From Dictyostelium discoideum (Eukaryota), in assembly GCA_000004695.1 (NCBI GenBank), contig CM000151.3, positions 480,001 through 544,000 on the forward strand: a stretch of DNA of 64,000 bases, in the 5' to 3' direction. Position 1 is the first letter of the stretch. Each line of letters opens with the position of its first letter. The notes under the pieces are model-generated. The model was not told the DNA's origin, did no database searches, and was given only the letters and a program-made list of their open reading frames with translations. The translations under genes and the position numbers were made by a program. Shown in pieces: positions 19,181-62,149 of the stretch.

Positions 19181-19835
19181 ATGGATATGAAATTAAATGA
19201 TATTGAAAATGAAAATTTTATAAATCAAATGAAAGGTGTTGCAATTGTTGGTATTGGATTTAGAATCCCTTCTGGTAATAGTGAAAATTCAATTAGTTCA
19301 CCAGATGATTTATTTAATAATTTAAAGAATGGTTTTGATGGTGTTAGTAGTACATCAGAAAGATGGAGTGACAATTACCACAAGTTGGGTGAAATTAGTA
19401 GTCCAAATGCAGGTTTATTACCATTAAATGAATGGAAATCATTCGATCCATTATTTTTTGGTATTAATCCATCCGATGCTCATCATATTGATCCTCAACA
19501 AAGATTATTATTAAAATGTACATGGGAAGCATTAGAAGATGCATCTATCGATCCAATTTCAATTCGTGGTACAAATACTTCAGTTTTCATTGGCTCATCA
19601 ACTATTGATTATTTACATGCAAATAAACATCCAGATCTTATTTTAAAGAATGCTATTGGTTTTTCACCAAGTACTTTATCAAATAGAATTTCATACTGCT
19701 TCGATATCCATGGTCCTTCATTATCAATTGATACAGCTTGCTCATCATCAATGAATGCTGTTACTCAAGGTTATCACTCAATATTAAATGGTACTTCCAA
19801 TATGTCTATTGTTGGTGGTGTAAATTTTGTAATAG
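19181..19835 (+). CDS. type I iterative polyketide synthase paralog A, exon 1 (KS N-terminal part including the active-site Cys)
   Basis: ATG at 19181. The KS beta-ketoacyl synthase N-terminus is [14 protein letters not shown] ... DTACSSSMNAV. The exon ends ...VNFVI then G|GTAAGA. Confidence 0.85.
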
Positions 19836-19920
19836 GTAAGAATTCTTATATTCTTGTGATTAATTATAATTATAATTTATTTTTAAATTATTAACTATTT
19901 TATTTATTTATTCATACTAG

Positions 19921-22900
19921 ATGTTGAAACAATAAAAGGTTTTTCATATTTAAATATGTTAAGTAAAACACATGGTAAATGTAAAGCATTTGATGAAAGT
20001 GGTGATGGTTTTACACGTGGTGAATGTGCTGGTGTTGTAGTTTTAAAGAAACTTGATGATGCTATTAGAGATGGTAATAGAATTTATTGTATAATTAATG
20101 GTATAAGTTCAAATATTGATGGTAATGGAATTGCTGATAAGGCCAACTTTTATTCACCATCAAAGCAATCACAATTTAATAATATTAATTTAGCATTTAA
20201 ATCAACCAATGGTAAAATTTCAGTAAATGACATTCAATATATCGAAGCACATGGTACCGGTACTAAAACAGGTGATCCAATTGAAACTGAAGCAATTTCA
20301 ATGGCTTTTAAAAATAGAGATAAATCAACACCAATTCTAATTGGTTCAATTAAAAGTAATATTGGTCATTGTGAAGCTGGTTCAGGTGTTGTATCATTAA
20401 TCAAATGTTGTTTAATGTTTAAATATCAATGCTTTTTACCAAATATTCATTTCAAAAATCCAAATCCATTAATTAAATTCAATGAATGGAATTTAAAAGT
20501 TGTAACATCACCAATTCCATTCAACAGAAATAATGAAAAATCAGTTTCAATGATGATTAATAACTTTGGTGTTACTGGTTCAAATTGTTGTTTACTTATT
20601 TCAGAGTTTAAAAAACAAGATTATGAATCATATGAAAACAACATCGGCAGTATTAATAAAAATATATTAGTGCCATTCTCAGCAAATTCTCCAAAGTCAT
20701 TGGACCAATACCAATCAAAAATCAAAAATATAATTAATAATCAATTCAATTTTATTGATTTTGCAAATAACCAAATTTATTCAAAATCAAATTATCTTTA
20801 TCAAAGATCAGTTGTAATAGCAAATAATTCAAATGATCTTGTTAATAAAATTTTAAATAAAAAACATATTCAAACTAAAAATCCAATCATTTCAAATATG
20901 TCATTCAAAGGAAAGAATCCAATTACAATTTTTGTTTTTTCAGGTCAAGGATCACAATATCCTAAAATGGCTTTAGAATTATATAATAATGAAGTAATCT
21001 TTAAAAAATCAATTGATTTAATCGATTCAAAATTATCAAAATACTATGGTTATTCAGTTTTAGAAAAATTAAGATCGATTGGAGATGATGATACTACTTC
21101 CATTCATGATCCAACTATTGCACAACCAGCAATGTGTATGTTTTCAGTATCATTATTTGAATTATATAAACATTGGGGAGTAAATCCTTCATTTATTCTT
21201 GGTCATAGTCTTGGTGAAATCCCAACCTCATATTGTTCTGGAATGATTGATTTAGATACATTCTGTTATACAGTTTATCAAAGATCAATAGCACAAACTA
21301 AAACACATGGTAATGGTAGAATGTTATCAATCAATATTAGTGATGAAGAATTTAAATCAATGTATTCTCAAAAGTATCCACAAATTGAAATTGCGTGTTA
21401 TAATTCACCTCAATCAATTGTTGTGGCAGGTAATGAATCAATATTAAATGAAATTTCAAAAGAATTAAAAGAAAAAGAAATTTTCACTGCAATGTTAGGT
21501 TCATTATCATCATTCCATACAAGTAGTCAACAATGTACAAAAGATAGTATATTACAACTAAACATTGAAAGTAAAAAATCAAAAGTACCAACATTTTCAA
21601 CAGTTACAACAAATTTATTCAACGAATCAGATCCATTTAATTCACAGTATGTTTATGATAATATTATTAATCCAGTTAAATTCACACAAACAATTTCAAA
21701 TATTTATAAACATATCGAATCAAATCAATTAGATAATGATATTGTATTCATTGAAATTGCACCACATCCAACATTATCATTTTATATTAAACAAATGGTA
21801 CCATCAAGTTTAAATGAATCAGTTTCAGTTTATTCAGCACTTCACAAGAAAAAGAATGATGTCGAAGAGTTTCAACAAACCATTTCAAATTTATATTGTC
21901 AAAATGGATATAATATTAATTTTAAATGTCAATTTAATAATAAAAAATCAAATCAAAAAATTAATTTACCACTTTATCAATGGGATGACGAATTATATTT
22001 CGCTCAAACTCAAGTACTCGAACAACATAGAAAAGAAGGACCACCAATTGACCATCTTGGTCTATCAAACTCTTATTATTCACCATTTAAAAATTCATAT
22101 AGGACATTTATTGATATAAAGAATAAACCATTTCAATATCTAAAAGGTCATATGGTTAAAGGTAAATACTACTTCCCAGGTTGTGGTTATATTGATAATA
22201 TTATTCAGCTTTATAAAAATCAAGATATTTTTATTAGTTTTATTGAATTTAAAACACCATTAATTTTAATTGAGGGTATCAATCAATGTTTACAGACAAA
22301 CATTCAACAAACTGGTAAAAGTGAATATCGTGCACAATTTCATTTCAAAGATCAAAAATCAAATGAATGGATTCAATCATCAAATGCAAATTTCCAATTA
22401 TTAGATCACACTATTGAAATGCCACCAAAGTATAATATTGAAGAAATTATTAAAAACAAATGTACGTTGGCAAGATTAACAAAGAATGAAATTTATACTC
22501 ACATAAAATCAAAAACTGGTTTAAATTATACTGCAATGTTTCAAGGTGCTACTGAATGTTATATAGGTGTAGATTGTACATTATCAGTTGTATCAATTGA
22601 ATCTCAAACAAATTCATTTTTAAATATACCAATTTTAGATTCAGTTTTCCATGGTAACATTTCTTTAATAAATGATCAATGTCAAATTGTATTTGATAAA
22701 GTTCATGGGTTAAAGTACTATTCATCAAATATTCCAAATGATTATAAAGATAAATCAGTTTATGTATATGCAAAATTAAAATCAAAGACAAGTGATTCAT
22801 ATTCAGCTTCATTTACTGTACTATTATCGGATGGTACAGTTGTATATGAAATTGATGAAGCATTCAGTAAATCTTTAATTCCAATTAAAGAATTACTTAA

Positions 22901-25900
22901 AATTGAATATCCAAATGATGAATTATTTTCAATTAATTTACAACCAAAAGATTCTCCAATTCCAGCTCCTTCAACTTTCAAATCCCTAATTTATGAAAAT
23001 GATCGTTTCAATGCTGAACCACCAATGGTAGAGAATCTCTTTCAATACATTTCAACAATATTTTATAAAAATATTATAAATAGATGTCCAGAAATTAATA
23101 TTGATATAATTAAATCTTTAAGTATTGATGAAATTATTTCAAATTTCAGTAAAATTTCAAAACATGAAAGATTATTTAAATATGTTTTTGAAACTATAAA
23201 AGAGAATGGTATTCTTAATAGTTTGGAAGAAAAAGATGATACTTACTTTGTATTTAATGAAGTACTTATCAAATCATCAAGAGTTATTTCAAAATTATTA
23301 TTCCCATTAGAAAATGATAATGATAATGAAGATACACCTCAATTATTATTTCAAAATGGTTTAATGGATAAAGTTTATAAATGCAGATATTTAAAAAATA
23401 AGAATCAAATGATTGCCCATATTATTAAACATTCAATTAAAGAGATTATTAATAATAATATTATAATTAGAATTTTAGAATTTGGAGGAGGTACTGCATC
23501 ATTATCAGTTGAAGTTATTGAAGAAATCGTTACATTACTTCAAGAGAATCCAAATTATCAAGTTGAAATCGAATATACATGGAGTGATATTTCGCCTGCA
23601 TTCATAGTAGATACAAAGAATAAAATCAATAAAATCATTAAAGGTGCTGGTATAACAAATGGATTAAATGTTATTTATCATCCATTAACAATTGATGAAT
23701 CATTGGTAGAACTTCAATCAATCAAACCATCATATTATGATTTTGTTATAATGTCAAATGTTCTTCATGTTGTTAAAGATATTAAACAAGCTGTAGAACA
23801 AATGTATCAATTGTTAATACCAAATGGTCAATTACTTTTTGTTGAACCCCCTTATAAATCAATAATATGTGATAGTTTATTTGGTTCATTTGAACAATGG
23901 TGGGCATTCACTGATACTGATATTAGAAAAGATCATTGTTGTCTTTCTCAAGATGGTTGGTATAAATTATTGAAATGGTCAAACTTTGAAAGTATTGAAA
24001 TGTCAACTGAAAGTAAATTCATGGGATCAGTTATCCAAGCACAAAAACCATCATTTACATCATTAATAAATCAACAACCAAAGTATGATAATATTATTAT
24101 TTTTGGTAACAATTGTCCAAACTTTATTGATAATATTAAACCATTTTCAAATTTCAATGAGTTCATTCAAATTGAAACTATTCAAGAATTTGATCAACTA
24201 ATTAACAAATCAACAATTACAAATGATTCAATCATTTATTTCATAAAATCAATTAATCAGTTATCTTTGGATAATTATAAACAAGCAACTCTTGAATATA
24301 TTGAAATCAATCAAAAACTATTACAAATTAATAGTTTATGTAAACATGTATTAATTGTTAATGATTCAAGAAAAACCAACTATTTAGCATCATCAATTGT
24401 TGGTGCTGCAAGATACTTTGATGAATTCCAACAATTGAAATTACATACATTAGATTTTGATTATGATTCAACCCAAAATTATTTAATTTCAAAAAATAAC
24501 AAAATGGTTCAATTCATTAATAACTTGATAGACTCCAAAACAAATGTTCATAAAGAAATGATTATAATTAATAACAAAGTATATTATGAAATAGTTCAAA
24601 AAGAGAAAAATCTAAAATTAAAATACAATTCAGAATCTTTCGAACAACAAGATAATTTAATGTGTTCATTATCACCAAATTTAGAATATCAATTACAATC
24701 AAAACAAATTAAATTAAGAGATAATCAAGTTGAAGTTAAAACAATTGCAACTGGTATCAATAATAAAGATTACTTAGTTTATAGTGGTTTAGAAGGTAGT
24801 GTTAATTCAAATACACCACAATTTGGATATGAATTTTCAGGTATAATAACAAGAGTTGGTAATAATGTAAAAGATTATAAAGTTGGTGATAATGTATTTG
24901 GTTTATCAAATTCTTGTACATCATCCAATATTATTGTGAATCATGAAAGAATTCAAATAAAACCTTCAAACATAAGTCATATTGAAGCAGCATCAATTCC
25001 AATTGATTATTTAACATCATTTATGAGTTTATTCAATGTTGGTTGTTTAAATATTGAAGATAATGAATCAATTTTAATTCATTTAGGTAGTGATAGTTTT
25101 GGGTTATCAACATTTGAAATATTAAAATGGAAAGGTTTTAAATCAAATTTATTCGTTACAGTTAATTCGGATGAAATTAAACAATATCTTTTAAATAATT
25201 ATGGTGATTTAATAACTGCAATTTATTCAAACACAGATAAAGGTTATGTAAGTCAAATTAAAAATAAACTTATTGAACAAGGCTCAAATGATAATGGAGT
25301 AGATTTAATATTAAATACATTACCAAGTGATTTTATGGATTCAAATTTCCAATTGTTAGCAATTAATGGTAGAATTATAGATTTATCAAATGATCATTTA
25401 AACCAAAGTGAATATATGAAAAATGTAAACTTTACTCTTAATCGTGGTTATCATAATTTTGATTTAATGTCACAAAGAAATTCAAGAATCAATAGAAGTT
25501 TATTAACCATTTCAAAAGCAATTGAAAATGGTGAATTAAAATTAATTCCAATTAAAGAATTTTCAAACTCTGATATTAATGATGCAATTGAATTTATTAT
25601 TGAAGAGAATAGAATTGATAAAATTGTAGTTAGTCATGATCATGAAGTTTATCAAGAACTCTATGCTAAATTTTCAAATGAAAATGATTTTTCAATATTA
25701 AAATCAAATTATCAAATTAATTCAAATAATTTAGGTAAAAATATATTAATTACCGGTCAATCAGGTATTATTTTAGAAATATTAAAATGGATCATTAAAT
25801 ATTCAAATATTAACACAATAGAAAATGTTATTATTCTTTCAAGATCATCATTAAAATGGGAATTAGAATTATTAATTAATCAAACCAAACTATCAAATAA

Positions 25901-26804
25901 TAATATTAAATTCCATTTCAAGAGTGTTGATGTTGGTGATAGTGAACAAGTTGATAATGCAATCAATGAAATATTAAATGAAAATCAAGAAATTATAAAT
26001 ATTCATTCAATATTCCATTTTGCATTTACCCAAATTGCATGTAAAGTTCAAGAAATCAATATGAAACATTTAGATATTTCACACGGAGCAAAAACAATGG
26101 GAGCAATTAATTTACATAATCAATCAATTAAACGTAATTGGAAATTAATTAATTTTGTGATTTCGTCATCAATTGCCTCTCTTGTTGGTTCAACAGATCA
26201 GTGTTCATATGTTTGTGCAAATGCATTATTAGATTCATTTTCAAAATATAGAGTATCTCTTGGACTACCATCAACATCTATTAATCTTGGTGCAATTGAA
26301 TCAACTGGTTTCGTTTCAAAGAATGAATCGATTTCAGTATTTTTAGATGGCAGTGGTATTATTCCAACACCAATCAATCAAGTTTTAGGCCTTTTAGATT
26401 TACAAATTCAAAACCCTGGTAAATTTACAAATTCAATGGTTGCTAAATTTAATCCATTAAACTTTTCAAATAATGAACAAATTAATCTTTTATTAAAAAT
26501 GGATTACATTTTCAATTTACATTCTAATGGATATACTAAAGTAAAGGAGAGTGCTGGAAGTAAAAATGTTGATGAATTGTTTATTAAAAAAATATCAGAT
26601 TTATTCTCAATTGATGAATCTAAAATAAATAAGGATATTAGATTAATCGATTATGGCGCAGACTCATTAGTTATCGTTCAATTAAAGAATTGGGTTGACC
26701 AAGAAATTGGATTTAATTTAATTACAATTCAACAACTTCAAAATAATACAATTAATGTTTCAATTAAAATAATTTTAAATTTTTTGAAAAAGATAAATAA
26801 ATAA
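19921..26804 (+). CDS. PKS paralog A, exon 2 (rest of KS, then AT-DH-cMT-ER-KR-ACP); stop at 26802-26804
   Basis: An 84-bp intron (19836-19920, GTAAGA...ACTAG) in phase 1 restores ..[41 protein letters not shown]. The KS His motifs are EAHGTGT and [10 protein letters not shown]. The AT motif is GHSLGE, the DH motif HMVKGKYYFPGCG and the cMT SAM motif ILEFGGGTAS. There are an ER-like MDR segment, a KR Rossmann segment ILITGQSGI and an ACP motif IDYGADSLV. No domain follows the ACP. Confidence 0.85.
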
Positions 26805-27456: not shown

Positions 27457-28093
27457 ATGAATAATTTAAAAAATATAGATTTAATAGAGAAAGGTGTTGC
27501 AATTGTTGGTATTGGATTTAGAATTCCTTCTGGTAATAATGAAAATTCAATTTGTTCACCAGATGATTTATTTAATAATTTAAAGAATGGTTTTGATGGT
27601 GTTAGTAGTACATCAGAAAGATGGAGTGACAATTACCACAAGTTGGGTGAGATTAGTAGTCCAAATGCAGGTTTATTACCATTAAATGAATGGAAATCAT
27701 TCGATCCATTATTTTTTGGTATTAATCCATCTGAAGCATCTTTAATCGATCCACAACAAAGATTATTATTAAAATGTACATGGGAAGCATTAGAAGATGC
27801 GTCAATTGATCCAATTTCAATTCGTGGTACAAATACTTCAGTTTTCATTGGTGCTTCAAATATAGATTATCAACATACAAATAAACACCAAGACTCAGTT
27901 TTAAAAAATGCAATAGCACAATCCACCTGTGCAATTTCAAATAGAATATCATATTGTTTCGATTTTAATGGTCCATCATTATCAATTGATACTGCATGTT
28001 CATCATCATTAAATGCAGTTTCTCAAGGTTATCATTCAATATTAAATGGTACTTCTGATATCTCAATTGTTGGTGGTGTAAATTTAATATTAG
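27457..28093 (+). CDS. PKS paralog B, exon 1 (KS N-terminus)
   Basis: ATG at 27457. The protein is near-identical to the PKS A exon 1 product. The exon ends ...VNLIL then G|GTAAGG. Confidence 0.85.
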
Positions 28094-28175
28094 GTAAGGA
28101 TTATATTTTAATTGTATATATTTTAAATTAAAAATACACTCATTAATTAATTTTTTATTTAATTTATTTTATCAG

Positions 28176-31100
28176 ATGTTGAAATGACAAAGGCATATTC
28201 GTATTTAAGCATGTTAAGTAAAACACATGGTAAATGTAAAGCATTTGATGAAAGTGGTGATGGTTTTACACGTGGTGAATGTGTCGGTGTTGTAGTTTTA
28301 AAAAATTTACAAGATGCAATTAAAGATGGTAATAGAATTTATTGTGTAATTAATGGTTCAAGTTCAAATGTTGATGGTAATGGTAATATGGATAAAGTTA
28401 ACTTTTATTCACCATCAAAACAATCACAATTTAATAATATTAATTCAGCATTTAAATCAACAAATGACAAGCTCTCAATTAATGATATTCAATATATCGA
28501 AGCACATGGTACTGGTACTAAAACAGGTGATCCAATTGAAACTGAAGCAATTTCAATGGCTTTTAAAAATAGAGATAAATCAGCACCAATTCTAATTGGT
28601 TCAATTAAAAGTAATATTGGTCATTGTGAAGCTGGTTCAGGTGTTGCATCATTAATCAAATGTTGTTTAATGTTTAAATATCAATGCTTTTTACCAAATA
28701 TTCATTTCAAAAATCCAAATCCATTAATTAAATTCAATGAATGGAATTTAAAAGTTGTAACATCACCAATTCCATTCAACAAAAGAAATAATGAAAAACC
28801 AGTTTCAATGATGATTAATAACTTTGGTGTAACAGGTTCAAATTGTTGTTTACTTATTTCAGAATTTAAAAATAACAATAACTTTAAAGAGAATATTAAT
28901 TTAGAATCTCAAAGTGTTAATGATAGAGTGTTAATACCATTCTCAGCAAATTCATCAAATTCATTAAATCAATACCAATCAAAATTTAAAAATATAATTA
29001 ATAATCAATTCAATTTTATTGATTTTACCGCAATTCAAATTTATTCAAAATCAAATTATCTTTATCAAAGATCAGTTGTAATTGCAAGTAATTCAAATGA
29101 ACTTTTTGAAAATATCTCAAATAAAAAACAAATTCAAACTAAAAATTCAATTATCTCAAATATGTCATTCAAAGGAAAGAACCCAATTACAATTTTTGTT
29201 TTTTCAGGTCAAGGATCACAATATCCTAAAATGGCTTTAGAATTATATAATAATGAAGTAATCTTTAAAAAGTCAATTGATTTAATCGATTCAAAATTAT
29301 CAAAGTACTACGGTTTTTCAGTATGGGAGAAGGTAAAAACAATCAAAGATGATGACTTAACCTCAATACATGATCCAATTTTTGCCCAACCAGCACTATG
29401 TATGATTTCAGTATCACTATTTGAATTATATTACCATTGGGGAGTAAATCCATCATTTATTCTTGGTCATAGTCTTGGTGAAATTTCAGCATCATATTGT
29501 TCTGGAATGATTGATTTAGATACATTCTGTTATACAGTTTATCAAAGATCAATAGCACAATCTAAAACAAATGGTTGTGGTAGAATGTTATCAATTAATA
29601 TCAGTGATGAAGAATTTAAATCAATGTATTCTCAAAAGTATCCACAAATTGAAATTGCGTGTTATAATTCACCTCAATCAATTGTTGTGGCAGGTAATGA
29701 ATCAATATTAAATGAAATTTCAAAAGAATTAAAAGAAAAAGAAATTTTCACTGCAATGTTAGGTTCATTATCATCATTCCATACAAGTAGTCAACAATCT
29801 ACAAAAGATAGCATATTACAACTAAACATTGAAAGCAATCAACCAAAAGTACCAATATTTTCAACAGTTACAACAAATTTATTTAATGAATCAAATCGAT
29901 TTAATTCACAATATGTTTATGATAATATTATCAAACCAGTTAAATTCACACAAACAATTTCAAATATTTATAAACATATCGAATCAAATCAATTAGATAA
30001 TGATATTGTATTCATTGAAATTGCACCACATCCAACATTATCATTTTATATTAAACAAATGGTACCATCAAGTTTAAATGAATCAGTTTCAGTTTATTCA
30101 GCACTTCACAAGAAAAAGAATGATGTCGAAGAGTTTCAACAAACCATTTCAAATTTATATTGTCAAAATGGATATAATATTAATTTTAAATGTCAATTTA
30201 ATAATAAAAAATCAAATCTAAATATTGAATTACCTCTTTACCAATGGAGTGACGAATTATACTTCGCTCAAAATCAAGTACTTGAACAACATAGAAAAGG
30301 AGGACCACCAATTGACCATCTTGGTCTATCAAACTCTTATTATTCACCATTTAAAAATTCATATAAAACACTTATTGATATAAATTATAAACCATTTCAA
30401 TATCTTAAAGGTCATATGGTTAAAGGTAAATACTACTTCCCAGGTTGTGGTTATATTGATAATATTATTCAACTTTATAAAAATCAAGATATTTTTATTA
30501 GTTTTATTGAATTTAAAACACCATTAATTTTAATTGAAGGTATCAATCAATATTTACAAACAAACATTCAACAAACTGGTAAAAGTGAATATCGTGCACA
30601 ATTTCATTTCAAAGATCATAAATCAAATGAATGGATTCAATCATCAAATTCAAATTTCCAATTATTAGATCATGGTAATGATATACCATCAAATTATAAT
30701 ATTAAAGAAATTATTAAAAACAAATGTAATTTGAGCAAATTAACAAAGAATGAACTTTATAAAAATATTAAATCAAAAACTGGTTTAAATTATACTGGAG
30801 TTTTTCAAGGTGTTACTGAATGCTATATAGGTGATAATTGTACCTTATCAGTTGTATCTTTAGAATCTCAAACAAACTCATTTTTAAATATACCAATTTT
30901 AGATACATGCTTACACGGAATGTTAATATTAATAAATGATCAATGTCAAATTGTATTTGACAAAGCCATTGGATTTAAATATTATTCATCAAACATACCA
31001 GCAGATTTTAAAGAAAACAAAGATAGTTTTTATGTTTATTCCAATCTTAGACCAAGAGTAGGTGGTGATTCATACCATGGAACAATTATAGTAATGTTAT

Positions 31101-34100
31101 CAGATGGTTCAGTTTTATATGAAATTGAAGAAGTTGTTTGTAAATCATTAATTCCAATCAAAGATTCACTTAAAATTGAATATCCAAATGATGAATTATA
31201 CAAAGTTCATTTACAATCAAAAGATTCTCCAATTCCAACACCATCATCATTCAAATCAATTATTTATGAAAATGATTTCTTTCAATCTTCACTTAATATT
31301 CCAGAAGATTTATTCAAATATATTTCAACATTATTTTATAAAGATATTATAAAAAGATGTCCAGAAATTAATATCAATAAAATTAATTCTCATAGTGTTA
31401 ATGAAATTATTTCAAGTTTCAGTAAAATTTCAAAACATGAAAGATTATTTAGATTTGTATTTGAAACAATAAAAGAGAATGGTATTCTTAATAGCTTCGA
31501 AGAAAAAGATGACACTTACTTCGAATTTAATAAAGTAATTATCAAATCATCAAGAATTATTTCAAAATTATTATTTCCATTAGAAAATGATAATGATAAT
31601 GAAGATTTACCTCAATCATTATTTCAAAATGGTTTAATGGATAAAATTTATAAATGCAGTTATTTAAGAAAGAAGAATCAAGTGATTTCACATGTCATTA
31701 AACATTCAATTAAAGAGATTATTAATAATAATATTATAATTAGAATTTTAGAATTTGGAGGAGGTACTGCATCATTATCAGTTGAAGTTATTGAAGAAAT
31801 CGTTACATTACTTCAAGAGAATCCAAATTATCAAGTTGAAATCGAATATACATGGAGTGATATTTCACCTGCATTCATAGCAGATGCAAAGAATAAAATC
31901 AATAAAATCATTAATGATGCTGCTATAACAAATGGATTAAATGTTATTTATCATCCATTAACAATTGGTGAATCATTGATAGAAACTCAATCAATTAAAC
32001 CATCATATTATGATTTCGTTATAATGTCAAATGTTCTTCATGTTGTTAAAGATATCAAACAAGCTGTAGAACAAATGTATCAATTGTTAACGACAAATGG
32101 TCAATTAGTGTTTTTAGAACCACCTTATAAATCAGTTCTAAACGATTCAATCGTTGGTTCATTTGAACAATGGTGGTCATTCACTGATACTGATATTAGA
32201 AAAGATAGATGTGGTATGCCTCAACAAAGTTGGTATCAATTATTAAATTCGTGTAATTTTAAAGACATTGTAATGTCTAAAGAATGCATTTTCTTTGGAT
32301 CAGTAATACAGGCACAAAAACCACCAATTTCTTTATTGAATTCTCAACCAAAGTATGATAATATAATTATATATGGTGGCAGTATTAATTCAAGTTTTGT
32401 AGAAAACATCAAATTAGATTCAAATTCAAAAAGTTTATTTCAAATTGAAACTATTCAAGAATTTAATAAATTAATAAGTAAATCAACAATTACAAACGAT
32501 TCAATAGTTTATTTCATAAAAACATTAGAAACATTATCATTGGATAATTTTAAACAAATAACTCTTGAATATATTGAAATCAATCAAAAACTATTACAAA
32601 TTAATAGTTTATGTAAACATGTATTAATTGTTAGTGATTCAAGAAAAACAAACTATTTAGCATCATCAGCTATTGGTGCAGCAAGATACTTTGATGAATT
32701 CCCACTATTGAAATTACACACATTAGATTTTGATTATGATTCAACTCAAAATTATATAAATTCAAAAAATAACAAAATGGTTCAATTCATTAATATCTTG
32801 ACAGATTCCAAAACAAATGTTCATAAAGAAATGATTATAATTAATAACAAAGTATATTATGAAATAGTTCAAAAAGAGAAAAATCTAAAATTAAAATACA
32901 ATTCAGAATCTTTTGAAAATCAAAATAATTTAATGTGTTCGTTATCACCAAATTTAGAATATCAATTACAATCAAAACAAATTAAATTAAGAGATAATCA
33001 AGTTGAAGTTAAAACAATTGCAACTGGTATCAATTATAAAGATTATTTAAATTTTAGTGGTTCAAATAGCAACGGTGATGACAATACAGGTTTACCACAA
33101 TTTGGATATGAATTTTCAGGTATTATAACAAGAGTTGGTAATAATGTAAAAGATTATAAAGTTGGTGATAATGTATTTGGTTTATCAAATTCTTGTACAT
33201 CATCTCACATTGTTACAAATTTTAAAAAAATTCAAATAAAACCTTCAAAAATAAGTCATATTGAAGCATCATCAATTCCAATTGATTATTTAACATCATT
33301 TATGAGTTTATTTAATGTTGGAAGTTTAAATATTGAAGATAATGAATCGATTTTAATTCATTTAGGTAGAGATGGTTTTGGGTTATCAACATTTGAAATA
33401 TTAAAATGGAAAGGTTTTAAATCAAATTTATTCGTTACAGTTAATTCAGATAAAACTAAACAATATCTTTTAAAAAAATATGGTGATTTAATTACTGGAA
33501 TTTATTCAAACACAGATAAAAGTTATGTGGCAGAAATAAAAAACAAATTAATTAAATTAGGTTCAAAAAAGAAAGGAGTAGATTTAATATTAAATACATT
33601 ACCAAGTGATTTTATGGATTCAAATTTCAAACTATTAACAAAGTATGGTAGAATAATTGATTTAAATTCAAATCATTTAAATCAAAGTGAATTTTTAAAA
33701 AATATCAATTTTAAATATAATCATGGTTACCATAACTTTGAGTTATCATTATTTCAAAAAAATAAAATTCTCAAATGTTTAAATGAAATTTCAAATGCTA
33801 TTGAAAATGGAGAATTAAAAACTATTCCAATTAAAGAATTTACAAATTTAAATATTAAAGATGCCATCAAATACATTACCAACGGTAACATTGAAAAAAT
33901 TACAGTTAGTCATGATCATGAAATTTATAGTGATATTATTTATAGATATTTAGATGAAAAAGAGTTTTCAATATTAAAATCAAATTATCAAATTAATTCA
34001 AATAATTTAGGTAAAAATATATTAATTACAGGTCAATCAGGTATTATTTTAGAAATATTAAAATGGATCATTAAATATTCAAATATTAACACAATTGAAA

Positions 34101-36313
34101 ATGTTATTATTCTTTCAAGATCATCATTAAAATGGGAATTAGAATTATTAATTAATCAAACTAAACTATCAAATAATAATATTAAATTCCATTTCAAGAG
34201 TGTTGATGTTGGTGATAGTGAACAAGTTGATAATGCAATCAATGATATACTAAATGAAAACCAACAAATTAGAAATATTGATTCAATATTCCATTTTGCA
34301 TTTCAACAAATTGCATGTAAAGTTCAAGAAATCAATATGAAGCATTTAAATATTTCACATGGAGCAAAATCAATGGGTGCAATTAATTTACATAATCAAT
34401 CAATTAAACGTAATTGGAAATTAATTAATTTTGTTATGGCTTCTTCTGCACTTTCATTTATAGATTCAACAGATCAATGTACATATGCTTGTGCAAATAC
34501 TCTATTAGATTCATTTTCAAAATACAGAGTATCACTTGGATTACCATCAACTTGTATTAACCTTGGTTTAATTGAATCAACTGGTTTCGTTTCAAAGAAT
34601 GAATCGATTTCAGTATTTTTAGATGGCAATGGTATTATCCCAACACCAATCAATCGAGTTTTAGGTCTTTTAGATTTACAAATTCAAAATGCTAGTAAAT
34701 TCACAAATTCAATGATTTCAAATTTCAAACCCTCAAAATTTAAAAATAATCAACAAATATCATTATTTTTAAAATTTGACTACTTGATGAATTTAAAAAA
34801 CAATAGTGAACAAACTAAAAAAGAGAATACTGGAAATAAAAACATTGATGAATTATTCATTGAGAAAGTTTCAGAATTATTTTCAATGGATGAATCAAAA
34901 ATAAATAAAAATCTTAGATTAATCGATTATGGTGCAGATTCATTAATAATAGTTCAATTAAAGAATTGGATAGATAAAGAAATTGGTATAAATTTAATAA
35001 CAATTCAACAACTTCAAAATAATACAATTAATATTTCAATTAAAATGATATTAAATTCATTAATGAAAAACAATCAAAATAAATACCTACCTTCAAATAG
35101 AATTGATTATTGGAAGAATGAAATGAAATTTGAAGAATCTATTAAACCAATACCAAATGAAATTCGATCAAGAAATAATAACTCAGGAAAAATTATTTTA
35201 TTAACTGGTACAACTGGTTTTTTAGGTGGTTTCTTGCTATTCAATATGTTAAGATTAGATTCATGTAAATTAATTTATTGTTTGATTAGGAATAAAAGTA
35301 AATCAAGTTATCCATTAGATGAAATTATAAATAATTTAAAATATCATCAACTTTATGAAAAATTAAATAAATCACAAATTTCAAAGATTATACCGATTAT
35401 TGGTGATTTATCAATGAATAAACTTGGTCTTTCAAATGATGATTATGAAACAATTTCAAAAAATGTAAATTTAATTATCAATCCAGGTGCAGATATTAAT
35501 CAAAAATCAAGTTATCAAGATTGTAAATTAGTAAATGTTAATGGAGTAAAAGAAATTATTAAATTATCATTATCATCTTTAAAACAAAGGATACCAATTG
35601 TAAACTTTTCATCATTTTCAGTATTTTTCAATCAATCACTTGATAAGAATTTCGATGAATCAGTTTTACCATCAATTGATAATATTGATAATTTACCAAC
35701 AGAATATATGAAGAGTAAAGTTGTGGGAGAATACATTTTATTGGAAGCTTCAAAAAATTATAATATACCATCAATTTTAATTAGACCACCAAGTATATTT
35801 TTAAATCCAGAAACAGGTATTGGTCATAGTAGTGATCTCACTTTATTAATGATCCAATCATGTTATGAATTAGGTTATTGCCCAAATCAAATTTTAAATG
35901 GTTTTATTTTAATTAATACAATTACATGGTTATCAAATAATATTACAAATATTATAATGAATGATAATTGTTGGACAAATTCAAAAATGAATATTTATAA
36001 TGTACATGGTAAACAAATTCAATCAAGTTTAATAATTAAACCACTTGAAAAACATTTCAATTGTAAACAAATCAACAATAATGATTGGATTGATATGGTT
36101 AATAATTCAAATAAAAAATCATGTATTAAATTAAAATCATTCCATTCTTTAGAGAATATTTTTAAAAGTGAAAACAAAGGATATAAATCCAATGAAAGTC
36201 AAAGCATTTCATTATCAACCAAATCATTACTAGAATCAATGGGTTCATACAATACTGATCTTAAAATCACTGATAAAATGATTATTTCTCATATTAAACA
36301 TATTTTTAAATAA
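28176..36313 (+). CDS. PKS paralog B, exon 2: KS-AT-DH-cMT-ER-KR-ACP plus a C-terminal NAD(P)-binding thioester reductase (R) domain
   Basis: Intron 28094-28175 in phase 1. It carries the same domain signatures as A. About 410 extra residues follow the ACP. They begin GKIILLTGTTGFLGGFLL (the TGxTGFLG Rossmann motif of R/NRPS-type reductase domains) and run to the stop at 36313. Confidence 0.85.
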
Positions 36314-38170: not shown

Positions 38171-38229
<59 letters not shown>

Positions 38230-39477: not shown

Positions 39478-40114
39478 ATGAATAATTTTAAGAATATAAA
39501 TTTAATAGAGAAAGGAGTTGCAATTGTTGGTATTGGATTTAGAATTCCTTCTGGTAATAATGAAAATTCAATCAGTTCACCAGATGATTTATTTAATAAT
39601 TTAAAGAATGGTTTTGATGGTGTTAGTAGTACATCAGAAAGATGGAGTGACAATTTTCATAAATTAGGTGAAATTAGTAGTCCAAATGCAGGTTTATTAC
39701 CATTTAATGAATGCAAATCATTCGATCCATTATTTTTTGGTATTAATCCATCCGAAGCACCATTGATTGATCCTCAACAAAGATTATTATTAAAATGTAC
39801 ATGGGAAGCATTAGAAGATGCATCTATTGATCCAATTTCAATTCGTGGTACAAATACTTCAGTTTTCATTGGTTCTTCAAATATTGATTATTTACATACA
39901 AATAAACATCAAGACTCAGTTTTAAAAAATGTAATAGCACAATCCACCTGTGCAATTTCAAATAGAATATCATATTGTTTCGATTTTAATGGTCCATCAT
40001 TATCAATTGATACTGCATGTTCATCATCATTAAATGCAATTTCTCAAGGTTATCATTCAATATTAAATGGTACTTCTGATATCTCAATTGTTGGTGGTGT
40101 AAATTTAATATTAG
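39478..40114 (+). CDS. PKS paralog C, exon 1 (KS N-terminus)
   Basis: ATG at 39478. The exon ends ...VNLIL then G|GTAAGG. Confidence 0.85.
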
Positions 40115-40186
40115 GTAAGGATTAAATATATATATTTTAAAAATACACTCATTAATTAAATTTAATTTATTTAAATATTTTACTAG

Positions 40187-43100
40187 ATGTTGAAACGACA
40201 AAAGCATATTCGTATTTAAGCATGTTAAGTAAAACACATGGTAAATGTAAAGCATTTGATGAAAGTGGTGATGGTTTTACACGTGGTGAATGTGCTGGTG
40301 TTGTAGTTTTAAAGAATTTACAAGATGCAGTAAAAGATGGTAATAGAATTTATTGTGTAATTAATGGTTCAAGTTCAAATGTTGATGGTAATGGTAATAT
40401 GGATAAAGTTAACTTTTATTCGCCATCAAAGCAATCACAATTTAATAATATTAATTCAGCATTTAAATCAACCAATGAAAAACTTTCAGTAAATGAAATT
40501 CAATATATCGAAGCACATGGTACTGGTACTAAAACAGGCGATCCAATTGAAACTGAAGCAATTTCAATGGCTTTTAAAAATAGAGATAAATCAACACCAA
40601 TTCTAATTGGTTCAATTAAAAGTAATATTGGTCATTGTGAAGCTGGTTCAGGTGTTGCATCATTAATCAAATGTTGTTTAATGTTTAAATATCAATGCTT
40701 TTTACCAAACATTCATTTCAAAAATCCAAATCCATTAATTAAATTCAATGAATGGAATTTAAAAGTTGTAACATCACCAATTCCATTCAACAGGAAAAAT
40801 GAAAAACCAGTTTCAATGATGATTAATAACTTTGGTGTAACAGGTTCAAATTGTTGTTTACTTATTTCAGAGTTTAAAAAACAAGATTATGAGCCATATG
40901 AAAACAACTACAAAAGTAATAATAAAAATATATTAATACCATTCTCAGCAAATTCATCAAATTCATTAAATCAATACCAATCAAAATTTAAAAATATAAT
41001 TAATAATCAATTCAATTTTATTGATTTTACCGCAAATCAAATTTATTCAAAATCAAATTATCTTTGTCAAAGATCAGTTATAGCTGCAAGTAATTCAAAT
41101 GAACTTTTTGAAAAAATTTTAAATAAAAAACAAATTCAAACTAAAAATTCAATCATTTCGAATATGTCATTCAAAGGAAAGAACCCAATTACAATTTTTG
41201 TTTTTTCAGGTCAAGGATCACAATATCCTAAAATGGCTTTAGAATTATATAATAATGAAGTAATCTTTAAGAAGTCAATTGATTTAATCAATTCAAAATT
41301 ATCAAAATACTATGGTTATTCAGTTTTAGAAAAATTAAGGTCGATAGGAGATGATGATACCACTTCCATTCATGATCCAAATATTTCACAACCAGCAGTG
41401 TGTATGATTTCAGTATCACTATTTGAATTGTATTGCCATTGGGGAGTAAATCCATCATTTATTCTTGGTCATAGTCTTGGTGAAATTTCAGCATCATATT
41501 GTTCTGGAATGATAGACTTAGATACATTCTGTTATACAGTTTATCACAGATCAATAGCGCAAACTAAAACACACGGTAATGGTAGAATGTTATCAATCAA
41601 TATCAGTGATGAAGAATTTAAATCAATGTATTCTCAAAAGTATCCACAAATTGAAATAGCATGTTATAATTCACCTCAATCAATTGTTGTGGCAGGTAAT
41701 GAATCAATATTAAATGAAATTTCAAAAGAATTAAAAGAAAAAGAAATTTTCACTGCAATGTTAGGTTCATTATCATCATTCCATACAAGTAGTCAGCAAT
41801 GTACAAAAGATAGTGTATTAAAACTAAATATTCAAAGCAATCAACCAAAAGTACCAATATTTTCAACAGTTACAACAAATTTATTTAATGAATCAAATCG
41901 ATTTAATTCACAATATGTTTACGATAATATTATTAATCCAGTTAGATTCACACAAACAATTTCAAATATTTATAAACATATCGAATCAAATCAATTAAAT
42001 AATGATATTGTATTCATTGAAATTGCACCACATCCAACATTATCATTTTATATTAAACAAATGGTACCATCAAGTTTAAATGAATCAGTTTCAGTTTATT
42101 CAGCACTTCACAAGAAAAAGAATGATGTCGAAGAGTTTCAACAAACCATTTCAAATTTATATTGTCAAAATGGATATAATATTAATTTTAAATGTCAATT
42201 TAATAATAAAAAATCAAATAAAAAAATTGATTTACCTCTTTACCAATGGAGTGACGAAACATACTTCGCTCAAACTCAAACACTTGAACAACATAGAGAA
42301 GAAGGACCACCAATTGACCATCTTGGTATATCAAACTCTTTTATTTCACCATTTAATAATTCATATAAAACATTAATCGATATAAACAATAAACCATTCC
42401 AATATCTTAAAGGTCATATGGTTAAAGGTAAATACTACTTCCCAGGTTGTGGTTATATCGATAATATTATTCAACTTTATAAAAATCAAGATATTTTTAT
42501 TAGTTTTATAGAATTTAAAACACCATTAATTTTAATTGAAGGTATCAATCAATGTTTACAAACAAACATTCAACAAACTGGTAAAAGTGAATATCGTGCA
42601 CAATTTCATTTCAAAGATCAAAAATCAAATCAATGGACTCAATCGTCAAATTCAAATTTCCAATTATTAGATCATGGTAATGATATACCATCAAATTATA
42701 ATATTGAAGAAATTATTAAAAACAAATGTAATTTAAGCAAATTAACAAAGAATGAACTTTATACACATATAAAATCAAAAACTGGTTTAAATTATACTGG
42801 AGTTTTTAAAGGTGTTACTGAATGTTATATAGGTGATAACTGTTCATTATCAGTTGTATCTTTAGAATCTCAAACAAACTCATTTTTAAATATACCAATA
42901 TTAGATACATGTTTACATGGAATGTTAGTATTAATAAATGATCAATGTCAAATTGTATTTGATAAAACCATTGGATTTAAATATTATTCATCAAACATAC
43001 CAGCATATTTCAAAGAAAATAAAGATTGTTTTTATGTTTATTCCCATTTAAAATCAAAGAGTGCTGATTCATACCATGGATCTATAATTGTAATGTTATC

Positions 43101-46100
43101 AGATGGTTCAGTTTTATATGAAATTCAAGAAGTTGTTTGTAAATCATTAATTCCAATCAAAGATTCACTTAAAATTGAATATCCAAATGATGAATTATAC
43201 AAAGTTCATTTACAATCAAAAGATTCTCAAATTCCAACACCATCATATTTCAAATCAATTATTTATGAAAATGATTCTTTCCATTCTATTGTAAATATTC
43301 CAGAAGATTTATTCAAATATATTTCAACATTGTTTTATAAAGATATTATAAAAAGATGTCCAGAAATTAATATCAATAAAATTAATTCTCATAGTGTTAA
43401 TGAAATTATTTCAAGTTTCAGTAAAATTTCAAAACACGAAAGATTATTTAGATTTGTATTTGAAACAATAAAAGAGAATGGTATTCTTAATAGTTTGGAA
43501 GAAAATGATGATGCTTATTTCGAATTTAATGAATTAGTTATAAAATCATCAAGAATTATTTCAAAATTATTATTTCCATTAGAAAATGATAATGATAATG
43601 AAGATTTACCTCAATCATTATTTCAAAATGGTTTAATGGATAAATTTTATAAATGCAACAATTTTAAAAAGAAAAATCAAATTATTTCACATGTTATAAA
43701 ACATTCAATTAAAGAGATTATTAATAATAATATTATAATTAGAATTTTAGAATTTGGAGGAGGTACTGCATCATTATCAGTTGAAGTTATTGGAGAAATC
43801 GTTACATTACTCCAAGAGAATCCAAATTATCAAGTTGAAATCGAATATACATGGAGTGATATTTCACCTGCATTCATAGCAGATGCAAAGAATAAAATCA
43901 ATAAAATCATTAATGATGCTGCTATAACAAATGGATTAAATGTTATTTATCTTCCATTAACAATTGGTGAATCATTGATAGAAACTCAATCAATTAAACC
44001 ATCATATTATGATTTCGTTATAATGTCAAATGTTCTTCATGTTGTTAAAGATATCAAACAAGTGGTAGAACAAATGTATCAATTGTTAACACCAAATGGT
44101 CAATTGGTGTTTGTTGAACCACCTTATAAATCAATTCTAATTGATTCAATAGTTGGTTCATTTGATCAATGGTGGTCATTCACTGATACTGATATTAGAA
44201 AAGATAGATGTGGTATGTCTCAACAAAGTTGGTATCAATTATTAAAGACATGTAATTTTAAAGACATTGTAATGTCTAAAGAATGCATTTTCGGATCAGT
44301 AATACAGGCACAAAAACCACCAATTTCTTTATTGAATTCTCAACCAAAACATGATAATATAATTATATATGGTGGTGGTAATAATTCACGTTTTTTTGAA
44401 AACATCAAATTATATTCAAATTCGAAAAGTTTAATTCAAATTGAAACTATTCAAGAATTTAATCAATTTATAAATAAATCTACAATTACAAACGATTCAA
44501 TCATTTATTTTATAAAAACATTAGAAACATTATCATTGGATAATTTTGCACAAATAACTCTTGAATATATTGAAATCAATAAAAAACTATTACAAATTAA
44601 TAGTTTATGTAAACATGTATTAATTGTTAGTGATTCAAGAAAAACTAACTATTTAGCATCATCAGTTGTTGGTGCTGCAAGATACTTTGATGAATTCCAA
44701 CAATTGAAATTACATACGTTAGATTTTGATTATGATTCAACTCAAAATTATATAAATTCAAAAAATAACAAAATGGTTCAATTCATTAATATATTAACAG
44801 ATTCAAAAACAAATGTTCATAAAGAAATGATTATAATTAATAATAAAGTATATTATGAAATAGTTCAAAAAGAGAAAAATCTAAAATTAAAATACAATTC
44901 AGAATCTTTTGAAAATCAAAATAATTTAATGTGTTCATTATCACCAAATTTAGAATATCAATTACAATCAAAACAAATTAAATTAAGAGATAATCAAGTT
45001 GAAGTTAAAACAATTGCAACTGGTATCAATTATAAAGATTATTTAAATTTTAGTGGTTCAAATAGCAACGGTGATGACAATACAGGTTTACCACAATTTG
45101 GATATGAATTTTCAGGTATTATAACAAGAGTTGGTAATAATGTAAAAGATTATAAAGTTGGTGATAATGTATTTGGTTTATCAAATTCTTGTACATCATC
45201 TCACATTGTTACAAATTTTAAAAATATTCAATTAAAACCTTCAAAAATAAGTCATATTGAAGCATCATCAATTCCAATTGATTATTTAGCATCATTTATT
45301 AGTTTATTTAATGTTGGTAGTTTAAATATTGAAGATAATGAATCAATTTTAATTCATTTAGGTAGTGATGGTTTTGGATTATCAACATTTGAAATATTAA
45401 AATGGAAAGGTTTTAAATCAAATTTATTCGTTACAGTAAATTCAGATGAAACTAAACAATATCTTCTAGATAGATATGGTGATTTTATTAGTGGAATTTA
45501 TTCAAACACAGATAAAAGTTATGTTACAGAAATAAAAAACGAATTAATTAAATTAGGTTCAAAAAAGAAAGGAGTAGATTTAATATTAAATACATTACCA
45601 AGTGATTTTATGGATTCAAATTTCGAGTTATTAACAAAGAATGCAAGAATAATTGATTTAACTTCAAATCATTTAAATCAAAGTGAATTTTTAAAAAATA
45701 TCAATTTTAAATATAATCATAGTTACCACAACTTTCAGTTATCATTATTTCAAAAAAATAAAATACAAAAATGTTTAAATGAAATTTCAAATGCTATTGA
45801 AAATGGAGAATTAAAAACTATTCCAATTAAAGAATTTACAAATTTAAATATTAAAGATGCCATCAAATACATTACCAACGGTAACATTGAAAAAATTACA
45901 GTTAGCCATGACCATGAAATTTATAGTGATATTATTTATAGATATTTAGATGAAAAAGAGTTTTCAATATTAAAATCAAATTATCAAATTAATTCAAATA
46001 ATTTAGGTAAAAATATATTAATTACAGGTCAATCAGGTATTATTTTAGAAATATTAAAATGGATCATTAAATATTCAAATATTAATACAATAGAAAATGT

Positions 46101-47091
46101 TATTATTCTTTCAAGATCATCATTAAAATGGGAATTAGAGTTATTAATTAATCAAACTAAACTATCAAATAATAATATTAAATTTCATTTCAAGAGTATT
46201 GATGTTGGTGATAGTGAACAAGTTGATAATGCAATCAATGAAATATTAAATGAAAATCAACAAATTACAAATATTGATTCAATATACCATTTTGCATTTC
46301 AACAAATTACATGTAAAGTTCAAGAAATCAATATGAAACATTTAGATATTTCACATGGAGCAAAATCAATGGGAGCAATTAATTTACATAATCAATCAAT
46401 TAAACGTAATTGGAAATTAATTAATTTTGTTATGGCTTCTTCTGCAATTTCATTAATAGGTTCAACAGATTTATGTACATATGCTTGTGCAAATACTCTA
46501 CTAGATTCATTTTCAAAATACAGAGTATCACTTGGATTACCATCTGCATGTATTAACTTTGGATCAATTGAATCTACTGGTTTCGTTTCAAAGAATGAAT
46601 CAGTTTCAGTATTTTTAGACGGTGGTGGTTTCCATCCAACACCAATCAATCAAGTTTTAGGCCTTTTAGATTTACAAATTCAAAATTCTGGTAAATTCAC
46701 AAATTCAATGCTTTCAAATTTCAAACCCTCAAAATTTAAAAATAATCAACAAATATCATTATTTCTAAAATTTGATTACTTGATGAATTTAAAAAACAAT
46801 AGTGAACAAACTAAAAAAGAGAATATTGGAAATAAAAACATTGATGAATTATTCATTGAGAAAGTTTCAGAATTATTTTCAACCGATGAATCAAAAATAA
46901 ATAAAAATCTTAGATTAATCGATTATGGTGCAGATTCATTAATAATAGTTCAATTAAAGAATTGGATAGATAAAGAAATTGGTATTAATTTAATAACAAT
47001 TCAACAACTTCAAAATAATACAATTAATATTTCAATCAAAATGATATTAAATTCATTAATGAAAAATAATCAATGTGGAAGGGAAATTTAA
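40187..47091 (+). CDS. PKS paralog C, exon 2 (KS-AT-DH-cMT-ER-KR-ACP); ends ...MKNNQCGREI* directly after the ACP
   Basis: Intron 40115-40186 in phase 1. It is more than 90% identical to paralog B through the ACP. No R domain is present. Confidence 0.85.
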
Positions 47092-51617: not shown

Positions 51618-51691
51618 GTAAGAATTACATTTAAATATATTATATATAAAATACACTCATTAATTAATTTTTTATTTAAATATTTTACTAG

Positions 51692-62083: not shown

Positions 62084-62149
62084 GTAAGGATTATTATTTT
62101 TTTTTTAAAATTAAAAATACACTTATTAATTAAAATTTATTTTTATTAG

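Follow-up and report, generated by a model that had tools for sequence, protein, structure and literature searches.

Chain release sets the form in which a polyketide is obtained: acid, amide, aldehyde or alcohol. In the coelimycin PKS CpkC the thioester reductase (TR) releases an aldehyde, which is then transaminated. In 21 of the 40 PKSs of Dictyostelium discoideum the ACP is followed by an offloading domain, which in 19 cases is a thioester reductase (PMC12828403). Pks5, which has no release domain, gives free C18 polyunsaturated (polyene) fatty acids, the dictyodenes, and an isoleucine amide (PMC9618038). Since chain release sets the form of the product, synthases that are 91–93% identical and differ in the presence of a reductase are a handy natural experiment, and this serves work on Dictyostelium natural products. 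The contrast in domains described here is real but already known, as it is contained in the gene annotations, and the literature already distinguishes TR-bearing from TR-less members of the family. Our data add three points: remnants at Pks8 give the direction of the change, another lineage conserves the pattern, and the genes that lack the reductase (R) domain remain under selection.

The synthase array and its C-termini

The analysed stretch of DNA (the window, 64,000 nt) derives from chromosome 2 of D. discoideum AX4. Its synthases PKS A, B, C and D, as they were designated in the original prediction, are Pks5, Pks6, Pks7 and Pks8/35 (Table 1). These identities were set by exact look-up of the spliced translations among database proteins, not by homology search, and all four proteins are annotated as "Probable polyketide synthase". 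Pfam recognised the order KS-AT-DH-MT-ER-KR-ACP in one polypeptide in 4/4 proteins, by which they are assigned to the iterative highly reducing type I PKSs of Dictyostelium (DdPKS). The array contains a set of synthases that are 91–93% identical, with the presence or absence of the reductase as the main difference. Identity is 92% between the bodies of Pks6 and Pks7 and 82% over the body between Pks5 and Pks6. Gene conversion was seen among the array paralogs and blurs the paralog tree. Other ORFs of the window that were scanned with Pfam encode a DNA polymerase zeta, a myotubularin-like phosphatase, a PAP2 phosphatase and PKS fragments.

Table 1. Features of the array, in positions of the window. 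Lengths of Pks5 to Pks8/35 are those of the exactly matching database proteins.
Feature	Position	Strand	Remarks
Pks5 (DDB_G0271520, Q86JI5, 2512 aa)	19181..26804	+	ends at ACP, …NFLKKINK, then stop 26802-26804
Pks6 gene (DDB_G0271524, UniProt B0G0Z9, 2924 aa)	27457..36313	+	exact database match when spliced
Pks6 ACP	34817..35083	+	Pfam ACP_SdgA_C, PP-binding
Pks6 tail, 411 aa in frame with ACP	35078..36313	+	linker 35078-35200, then R domain
NAD(P)H-binding Rossmann motif TGTTGFLGG	35204..35230	+	read from sequence; aligns with MxaA
Catalytic triad region Ser/Tyr/Lys of Pks6 R (putative)	35603..35731	+	aligned to MxaA
Pks7 (DDB_G0271614, B0G100, 2513 aa)	39478..47091	+	KNNQ-CGREI-stop
Pks8/35 (DDB_G0271618, 2514 aa)	50981..58599	+	KNNQ-I-stop (58594-58599)
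Pks8 ACP-R linker stub, 19 nt (ATATAGATGACAATAATAA; corresponds to N-I-D-D-N-N of Pks9)	58594..58612	+	blastn against R-bearing genes of other strains
Decayed remnant of the R 3′ coding end, downstream of Pks8 stop	58618..58667	+	blastn, colinear alignment
PKS pseudogene fragment between Pks8 and Pks9	58791..60451	+	copy of promoter and exon 1, AT piece, ER piece
Pks9/36, 5′ part (DDB_G0271530, P0036, 2931 aa)	61447..64000	+	C-terminus beyond the window

A fifth paralog starts close to the end of the window, and its 829 residues encoded there match the N-terminus of Pks9/36 without a difference. Pks9, the next full-length member of the array, keeps R; in the database protein this domain is 92% identical to the Pks6 tail. 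The view that only one paralog (B) has an R domain is therefore incorrect and results from the edge of the window. Within the window, tblastn with the Pks6 tail did not detect a second copy of the R domain and matched only the shared ACP outside of Pks6. The PKS pseudogene fragment contains no R sequence.

The last residues that Pks6 has in common with its paralogs are NSLMKNNQ (35054-35077), and its DNA homology stops at 35077 in comparison to Pks7, at 35078 in comparison to Pks8, and at 35085 in comparison to Pks5. As predicted, Pks5 and Pks8 stop right after the ACP. Homology of Pks7 to the R-bearing paralogs breaks exactly past the Q codon (47073), and 47074-47091 encode CGREI and the stop, so that five codons follow KNNQ instead of the ten counted originally. 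All three C-termini agree with the database gene models, and Pks5 orthologues in three other assemblies finish at the identical residue. An additional release exon downstream of these genes, which was named as a reason to reject the original prediction, was not found: tblastn of the whole window with the Pks6 tail revealed no R exon behind Pks5, Pks7 or Pks8, which rules out hidden R exons, and Pfam recognised no thioesterase, hydrolase, acyltransferase or other release-type domain in the selected sizeable ORFs of the window. Stand-alone thioester reductases were also considered as partners acting in trans and were dropped, since no PKS is linked to the one that was examined and the Pks5 products are acids.

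Pks7 and Pks8 have intact ORFs (2513 and 2514 aa) in which all catalytic domains are recognised. Their dN/dS values (0.24 for Pks7 and 0.26 for Pks8, over about 2300 codons) resemble the value for the proven Pks5 (0.20). The divergent strain ACTFIW has the same five-gene order and R pattern as AX4, including the Pks7 junction CAA-TGT[G/C]GAAGGGA, with the break following CAA. Genes similar to Pks7 and Pks8 appear to be missing from strain ACTFIR; the assemblies of both strains contain some split gene models, which may be assembly errors. Judged by the ACTFIR data, Pks7 and Pks8 seemed to be confined to the AX4 lineage, a view that the gene order and R pattern of ACTFIW rule out. The genes lacking R are thus intact, functional and under purifying selection. 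One could also regard Pks7 and Pks8 as pseudogenes that are dying after truncation, in which case the contrast to Pks6 would reflect decay and not an alternative release chemistry. A clear PKS pseudogene fragment is indeed present in the array, the ACTFIR assembly would fit such decay, and the metabolite features linked to pks7 are few (PMC12625978). The loss of pks7 does, however, remove metabolite features, which are annotated with amino-acid moieties (PMC12625978), and together with the intact reading frames, the dN/dS values similar to Pks5 and the conservation of the R-less state in ACTFIW this makes decay an unlikely explanation.

The C-terminal domain of Pks6

The Pks6 gene consists of exon 1 (27457-28093), an intron (28094-28175) and exon 2 (28176-36313), and Pfam recognised the domain order KS-AT-DH-MT-ER-KR-ACP-R. 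The ACP harbours the phosphopantetheine-site motif DYGADSL at 34925-34945. A single ORF (28184-36313) extends 411 codons beyond the ACP, from 35078 to 36310, followed by the stop at 36311-36313, in good agreement with the extension of about 410 aa with a TGxTGFLG reductase that was described for PKS B. Between the end of the ACP (35083) and the start of the R domain (35201) the ORF is continuous, with neither intron nor stop. The R domain comprises NAD_binding_4 (35201-35902) and a C-terminal subdomain that reaches to 36310.

The search of the Pks6 tail against NAD_binding_4 that had been proposed as a check gave a clear match (PF07993, E = 4.2e-52, 177.3 bits at a cut-off of 20.1). The tail also matched the thioester-reductase model TIGR01746 (E = 3.3e-43), with a score of 148 bits that is below the curated NCBI cut-off of 213. 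A phmmer search against the PDB revealed the R domain of MxaA (4u7w, E = 1e-25) and the TR of a Streptomyces coelicolor PKS (8v1x) as best solved relatives. Used as a query for homologues, the tail failed to recover the PKSs of D. discoideum and identified stand-alone Dictyostelium thioester reductases of 436–441 aa that are about 41% identical to it.

The columns of the TGxTGFLG motif are nearly invariant (at least 90% conserved in alignment A1, 25 homologues), and a conserved Arg is located in CLIRNKS (35279-35299), 3′ of the motif in Pks6. The putative catalytic Ser of NFSSFSV (35603-35623) lies opposite VSTVSV of MxaA, and the putative Tyr and Lys of EYMKSKVVGE (35702-35731) lie opposite GYAQSKWVAE. 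The YxxxK motif and the Ser/Thr position likewise align with 8v1x. Y210 and K214 of the tail are invariant in the alignment of 25 sequences. The His of the usual IxHxGA is replaced in Pks6, where Asn-Pro is found (IINPGA). An AF2 model of the tail (pLDDT 85.9, pTM 0.89) is predicted to adopt the two-subdomain R fold, with a Rossmann subdomain and a C-terminal substrate subdomain. Foldseek placed terminal R domains at the top, with 4u7w (E = 1e-24, TM 0.79/0.83) followed by 8v1x, CAR and an R domain of an Mtb NRPS, and the top 32 PDB matches are all R or CAR reductase domains or the fatty-acyl reductase DPW (TM up to 0.83). The tail has a dN/dS of 0.13–0.21 (0.13 in comparison to the Pks6-like gene of ACTFIW), which demonstrates that it is under purifying selection.

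Sequence models, catalytic motifs and the predicted fold together classify the Pks6 tail as a bona fide terminal thioester reductase, as stated in the original prediction. It seems improbable that the tail is of the R type without being a reductase, that is, either a decayed appendage or a redox-inactive R* domain whose product would leave by Dieckmann or Claisen cyclisation. Such a role would be in line with the TIGR01746 score below the curated cut-off and with the replaced His, but the tail has the Tyr, Lys and Ser predicted to be catalytic as well as the full TGxTGFLG NADPH motif, the best fits to the confident model are MxaA and CpkC, which are true reductases, and the low dN/dS speaks against decay. 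To our knowledge, the R* domains that are not redox-active lack the catalytic Tyr.

Direction of change

Downstream of the Pks8 ACP we observed two pieces of an R-bearing gene. In the linker stub one A is missing from an A-run, which shifts the frame and thereby generates the stop codon. The decayed 3′ remnant shows 84% identity over 50 nt in blastn (E = 3e-9). Its local alignment score of 60 is about 10 sd above that of 1000 intergenic controls (mean 23.8, sd 3.5, maximum 36). The stretch between stub and remnant lacks about 1.09 kb of R that a Pks9-like gene has. The presence of both pieces indicates an internal deletion of about 1.09 kb, by which Pks8 lost R with both edges kept. The statement that Pks6 "retains" the domain thus gives the right direction, as Pks8 holds remnants of a deleted R. 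The Pks8-like gene of ACTFIW ends with …KNNQNIDGNNKNLPSNRID and the stop, with 15 linker residues kept in frame.

No remnant of R was detected 3′ of Pks7 or Pks5, where scores did not exceed those of shuffled sequences (z about 0.6–0.7 for Pks7) and loosely parameterised blastn gave only AT-rich noise. From the 92% identity of Pks7 to R-bearing paralogs and the shared break point we infer that Pks7 probably lost R through a clean break behind the ACP. Pks5 is a member of an older lineage that lacks R. The domain may have been gained in the common ancestor of Pks6 to Pks9 after the split from Pks5, which leaves the loss in Pks7 and Pks8 unaffected.

A recent gain of R by Pks6 and Pks9, for instance through fusion to the gene of a stand-alone reductase, with Pks5, Pks7 and Pks8 in the ancestral state, would account for the fact that all three genes stop within 0–5 codons of one position, for the existence of stand-alone thioester reductases (436–441 aa) in Dictyostelium and for the lack of R in the outgroup Pks5 in every assembly examined, but it is very improbable in view of the stub and remnant at Pks8, the 15 in-frame linker residues in ACTFIW, the identity of just about 41% to the stand-alone enzymes (one of which was examined and does not adjoin a PKS), the 92% identity between the R tails of Pks6 and Pks9, and the 19 of 40 D. 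discoideum PKSs with R, which make the fusion an old one (PMC12828403).

Loss of R thus remains the favoured direction, and it shows three break patterns: a clean break in Pks7, the internal deletion in Pks8 of AX4 and a different point in the Pks8-like gene of ACTFIW. In both D. discoideum lineages, which are divergent, purifying selection has preserved the truncated synthases. One may speculate that repeated independent deletions of R, with the truncated synthases kept, represent an adaptive switch of the offloading chemistry. This idea is tentative, and we rather doubt it at present. If true, loss of R would swap the reductive release of an aldehyde or alcohol for release of an acid by hydrolysis or of an amino-acid amide by aminolysis and would diversify the products of near-identical synthases.

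Release chemistry and comparison with known systems

Taken together, we consider it quite probable (about 85%) that the Pks6 tail is an NAD(P)H-dependent R/TR domain and that its R-less neighbours derive from R-bearing ancestors, are functional and offload their products non-reductively. The finished chain, bound as a thioester to the phosphopantetheine arm of the Pks6 ACP, would enter the active site of R, where a hydride from NADPH and a Ser/Tyr/Lys triad as in short-chain dehydrogenases would cleave the thioester to give an aldehyde. A second reduction by the Pks6 R domain may yield the alcohol. Pks7 and Pks8 would offload by hydrolysis or aminolysis. Release by Pks5, Pks7 and Pks8 had been described as unknown; this no longer applies to Pks5, since its products, free acids and an isoleucine amide, show that release is non-reductive (PMC9618038).

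The apicomplexan megasynthases CpFAS1/CpPKS1 and TgPKS2 are described as type I synthases of eukaryotic protists that, like Pks6, end in a product-release reductase, but they are multi-modular giants, and Pks6 is an iterative single-module enzyme. The best match in sequence and fold is the R domain of MxaA (myxalamid PKS-NRPS, PDB 4U7W/4W4T; E = 1e-25). It shares with the Pks6 R domain the TGxTGFLG, GDL…LGL and YxxSK motifs and the position directly after a carrier domain, but it is bacterial, stands behind an NRPS PCP and is only about 22% identical. MxaA is known to perform a four-electron reduction to the alcohol. The TR of CpkC (coelimycin PKS, Streptomyces coelicolor, PDB 8V1X) is the second-best match in sequence and fold and is attached to a PKS like that of Pks6; CpkC differs in being a modular bacterial PKS, with about 18% identity to the Pks6 tail. 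Pks5 (dictyodene synthase, PMC9618038) is a neighbour in the array with the same architecture from KS to ACP, but has no R domain and releases free C18 polyene acids and the Ile amide non-reductively (PMC9618038). The other TR-bearing PKSs of D. discoideum (19/40, PMC12828403), above all Pks9/36, have the same architecture as Pks6; Pks9/36 differs by a linker that is 5 residues longer (NIDDNNKDLPSNR in Pks9/36 versus NKYLPSNR in Pks6).

Gene identities and C-termini of the PKS array

The plus strand of the window (G+C 21-29%) carries large ORF pairs arrayed head-to-tail, each pair representing one PKS gene that is split by a GT…AG intron of 72-85 nt within the KS domain. Upstream of the array, domains of DNA polymerase family B, of a myotubularin-like phosphatase and of a PAP2 phosphatase are encoded. 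The spliced products of the four complete genes match D. discoideum AX4 proteins exactly and over their full length in the database comparison, and a fifth gene, Pks9/36, runs off the window.

Features of the window; A-D are the letters of the original prediction, R is the terminal thioester reductase domain
Feature	Position	Gene	Letter	Product	Remark
Pks5		DDB_G0271520	A	2512 aa	exact database match
Pks6		DDB_G0271524	B	2924 aa	exact database match
Pks7		DDB_G0271614	C	2513 aa	exact database match
Pks8/35		DDB_G0271618	D	2514 aa	exact database match
Pks9/36	start 61447	DDB_G0271530		2931 aa	continues beyond window edge; 829 window-encoded residues are its N-terminal start
Pks6 exon 2	28184-36313				single uninterrupted ORF
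Pks6 …NSLMKNNQ	35054-35077				last residues common to the paralogs
Pks6 tail	35078-36310			411 codons	
NAD_binding_4	35201-35902				Pfam, E = 4.2e-52
Pks8 linker stub	58594-58612				ATATAGATGACAATAATAA
R 3′-end remnant	58618-58667				84% identity over 50 nt
PKS pseudogene	58791-60451				between Pks8 and Pks9
Pseudogene piece	58791-59391				promoter and exon 1 copy
Pseudogene piece	59427-60349				AT region
Pseudogene piece	60344-60451				ER region, short
Simple repeat	38000-38350				long, trinucleotide-type
Coding-region repeats	1890-2000, 2600-2740, 6600-6830, 16280-16560				examples matched by the simple repeat
Inverted duplication	47453-47699 / 48190-48407				85% identical
ORF	47857-48270			137 aa	no Pfam match
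ORF	49292-50167 (- strand)			292 aa	no Pfam match
Skewed segment	48000-50000				GC skew +0.30

The original prediction that PKS B continues past the ACP, while A, C and D end there, was borne out for all four complete genes by reading frames, homology limits and tblastn. In Pks5 the stop codon immediately follows the ACP, Pks8 adds one Ile, and Pks7 adds CGREI, 5 codons where 10 had been counted before. Nucleotide homology of Pks6 ends at 35077 versus Pks7, at 35078 versus Pks8 and at 35085 versus Pks5. No second R-like sequence was found by tblastn of the Pks6 tail in any frame of the whole window, which argues against missed downstream release exons of A, C and D. The view that only one paralog has an R domain arises from where the window ends: the R domain of Pks9 is 92% identical to the Pks6 tail.

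Some other features were seen in the window. The simple repeat gave many blastn matches to coding-region repeats elsewhere. The inverted duplication lies on either side of the 137-aa ORF, the 3′ end of which falls inside one arm. The 292-aa ORF, located in a segment of unusually strong GC skew, contains a Cys/His-rich stretch (…HNKVCPICNNEMNNDPYGHLFFNC…) and looks like a possible retroelement ORF fragment.

The R domain of Pks6

The HMM search proposed for the tail of B detected NAD_binding_4 directly C-terminal to the Pks6 ACP. This domain was absent from Pks5, Pks7 and Pks8 in the Pfam scan, and all remaining Pks6 domains were present there. The NCBIfam thioester-reductase model TIGR01746 also matched the tail (E = 3.3e-43), with 148 bits being below the strict NCBI cut-off of 213. 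By sequence, the solved structure closest to the tail is that of the MxaA terminal R domain from the myxalamid synthetase (E = 1e-25), followed by a Streptomyces coelicolor PKS TR. The cofactor motif TGTTGFLGG is intact, EYMKSK aligns with the catalytic GYxxSK motif and FSSFSV with the catalytic Ser/Thr position of solved R domains, and the catalytic Tyr and Lys are invariant in an alignment of 25 homologues. From this alignment a confident AlphaFold2 model was obtained (pLDDT 85.9, pTM 0.89). Its best Foldseek PDB matches were without exception carrier-linked reductase domains (MxaA, TM 0.79/0.83; CpkC-type TR; carboxylic acid reductase R; mycobacterial and archaeal NRPS R), as expected for a reductase-family fold. 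Profile search, motifs and predicted fold agree, and the assignment of the tail as a TGxTGFLG reductase domain stands. A non-redox role, as in redox-inactive R* domains, is unlikely, given that the tail has both its cofactor motif and the Tyr/Lys pair.

Thioester-reductase-like proteins that stand alone (418-441 aa; database proteins P0001-P0003 and P0005) also occur in Dictyostelium species and share 38-41% identity with the Pks6 tail. The one examined (D. cf. discoideum assembly ACTFIZ, locus L001, 10001-11326) adjoins genes for a ThrE-family protein, an uncharacterised 1464-aa protein and a thiolase, and no PKS.

R-less paralogs and variation of the array

From KS to ACP, protein identity is 91-93% among Pks6, Pks7, Pks8 and Pks9, and 82% between Pks5 and these. 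Alignment columns 450-750 of Pks6 are 99% identical to Pks9 and 84-90% to Pks7, while the last 124 columns (ACP region) are 98% identical to Pks7. At the sequence level, this mosaic identity of Pks6-Pks9 indicates gene conversion between tandem paralogs.

Directly after its Q codon, Pks8 has a stub of the ACP-R linker start of Pks9-type genes (N-I-D-D-N-N), in which one A is missing from an A-run, so that the frame shifts into a stop. Five bases further on, a sequence matches the R coding 3′ end (around …ENNRY(K/E)PNENQSISLST). Its alignment score was 60, compared to a mean of 23.8 (sd 3.5, maximum 36) for 1000 intergenic window segments of equal length. Compared with a Pks9-like gene, Pks8 lacks about 1.09 kb of R coding sequence between stub and remnant. 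Pks8 is thus an R-bearing gene that underwent an internal deletion, and the downstream remnants are the decisive evidence for loss of R, not gain. In a second, divergent D. discoideum strain, ACTFIW, the Pks8-like protein ends …KNNQNIDGNNKNLPSNRID* with 15 linker residues in frame, and the break point differs from AX4.

No R remnant was detected downstream of Pks7. Its junction CAA|TGT[G/C]GAAGGGA is common to AX4 and the ACTFIW Pks7-like gene, and the loss of R should therefore be older than the split of these lineages. At Pks5 no R remnant was detected either, and the C-terminal residue is the same in all orthologues seen, that of D. cf. discoideum among them. Both points fit an older R-less state.

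ACTFIW (loci L005-L007) has five genes in AX4 order, Pks5 and 6-, 7-, 8- and 9-like genes, with R −,+,−,−,+. The strain ACTFIR (L003/L004) has only Pks5, one R-bearing PKS, a methyltransferase fragment and an R-bearing Pks9-like gene, and in D. cf. discoideum ACTFIY (L002) non-PKS genes follow the Pks5 orthologue. This differing gene content shows the array to be dynamic. In both ACTFIR and ACTFIW, the models of the Pks6-like gene are split or shortened, possibly because of frameshifts or assembly errors. Part of the AX4 pseudogene is modelled in the database as a 116-aa protein (P0042).

Chain release and known PKSs

The Pks7 and Pks8 ORFs are intact, with every domain other than R recognised. 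Between AX4 and ACTFIW, dN/dS was 0.24 for Pks7, 0.26 for Pks8, 0.20 for Pks5 and 0.13 for the R tail of Pks6. Pks5, described as KS-AT-DH-MT-ER-KR-ACP, is experimentally functional; its products are dictyodenes A and B, free C18 polyunsaturated hydroxy fatty acids, and the isoleucine amide of dictyodene A (PMC9618038). To call the release of A unknown was thus overstated. A few metabolite features are lost in a pks7 knockout, and these were annotated with amino-acid moieties (PMC12625978). Together, these products suggest that R-less members release non-reductively, as acid or amide. No thioesterase, hydrolase or acyltransferase is encoded among the window ORFs scanned.

Pks6 has an intact R-type domain under selection adjoining its ACP, and it is transcribed, as moderate down-regulation of the pks6 transcript during aggregation was reported in the mutant of PMC12625978. 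By analogy to MxaA, CpkC (coelimycin PKS), CAR and Lys2-type reductases, its release would be reductive: hydride from NADPH would be transferred to the acyl-S-phosphopantetheine thioester, freeing an aldehyde that may then be reduced further to the alcohol. Pks9 would be expected to act like Pks6.

The contrast between R-bearing and R-less synthases is real and the R domain was correctly recognised, with "only B" and "unknown" release for A slightly overstated. It is also already known. Pks5-Pks9 are annotated in AX4, and an offloading enzyme follows the ACP in 21 of 40 D. discoideum PKSs according to PMC12828403, 19 of these enzymes being thioester reductases; by its legend, Figure 4A there marks TR-bearing synthases and chromosomally adjacent homologues, and Pks6 and Pks9 are named in neither the main text nor the supplements. 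A TR difference within a paralog pair is thus an expected, documented feature of the family, to which the Pks8 deletion remnants, the Pks7 junction in a second lineage and the continued selection on R-less genes are small additions.
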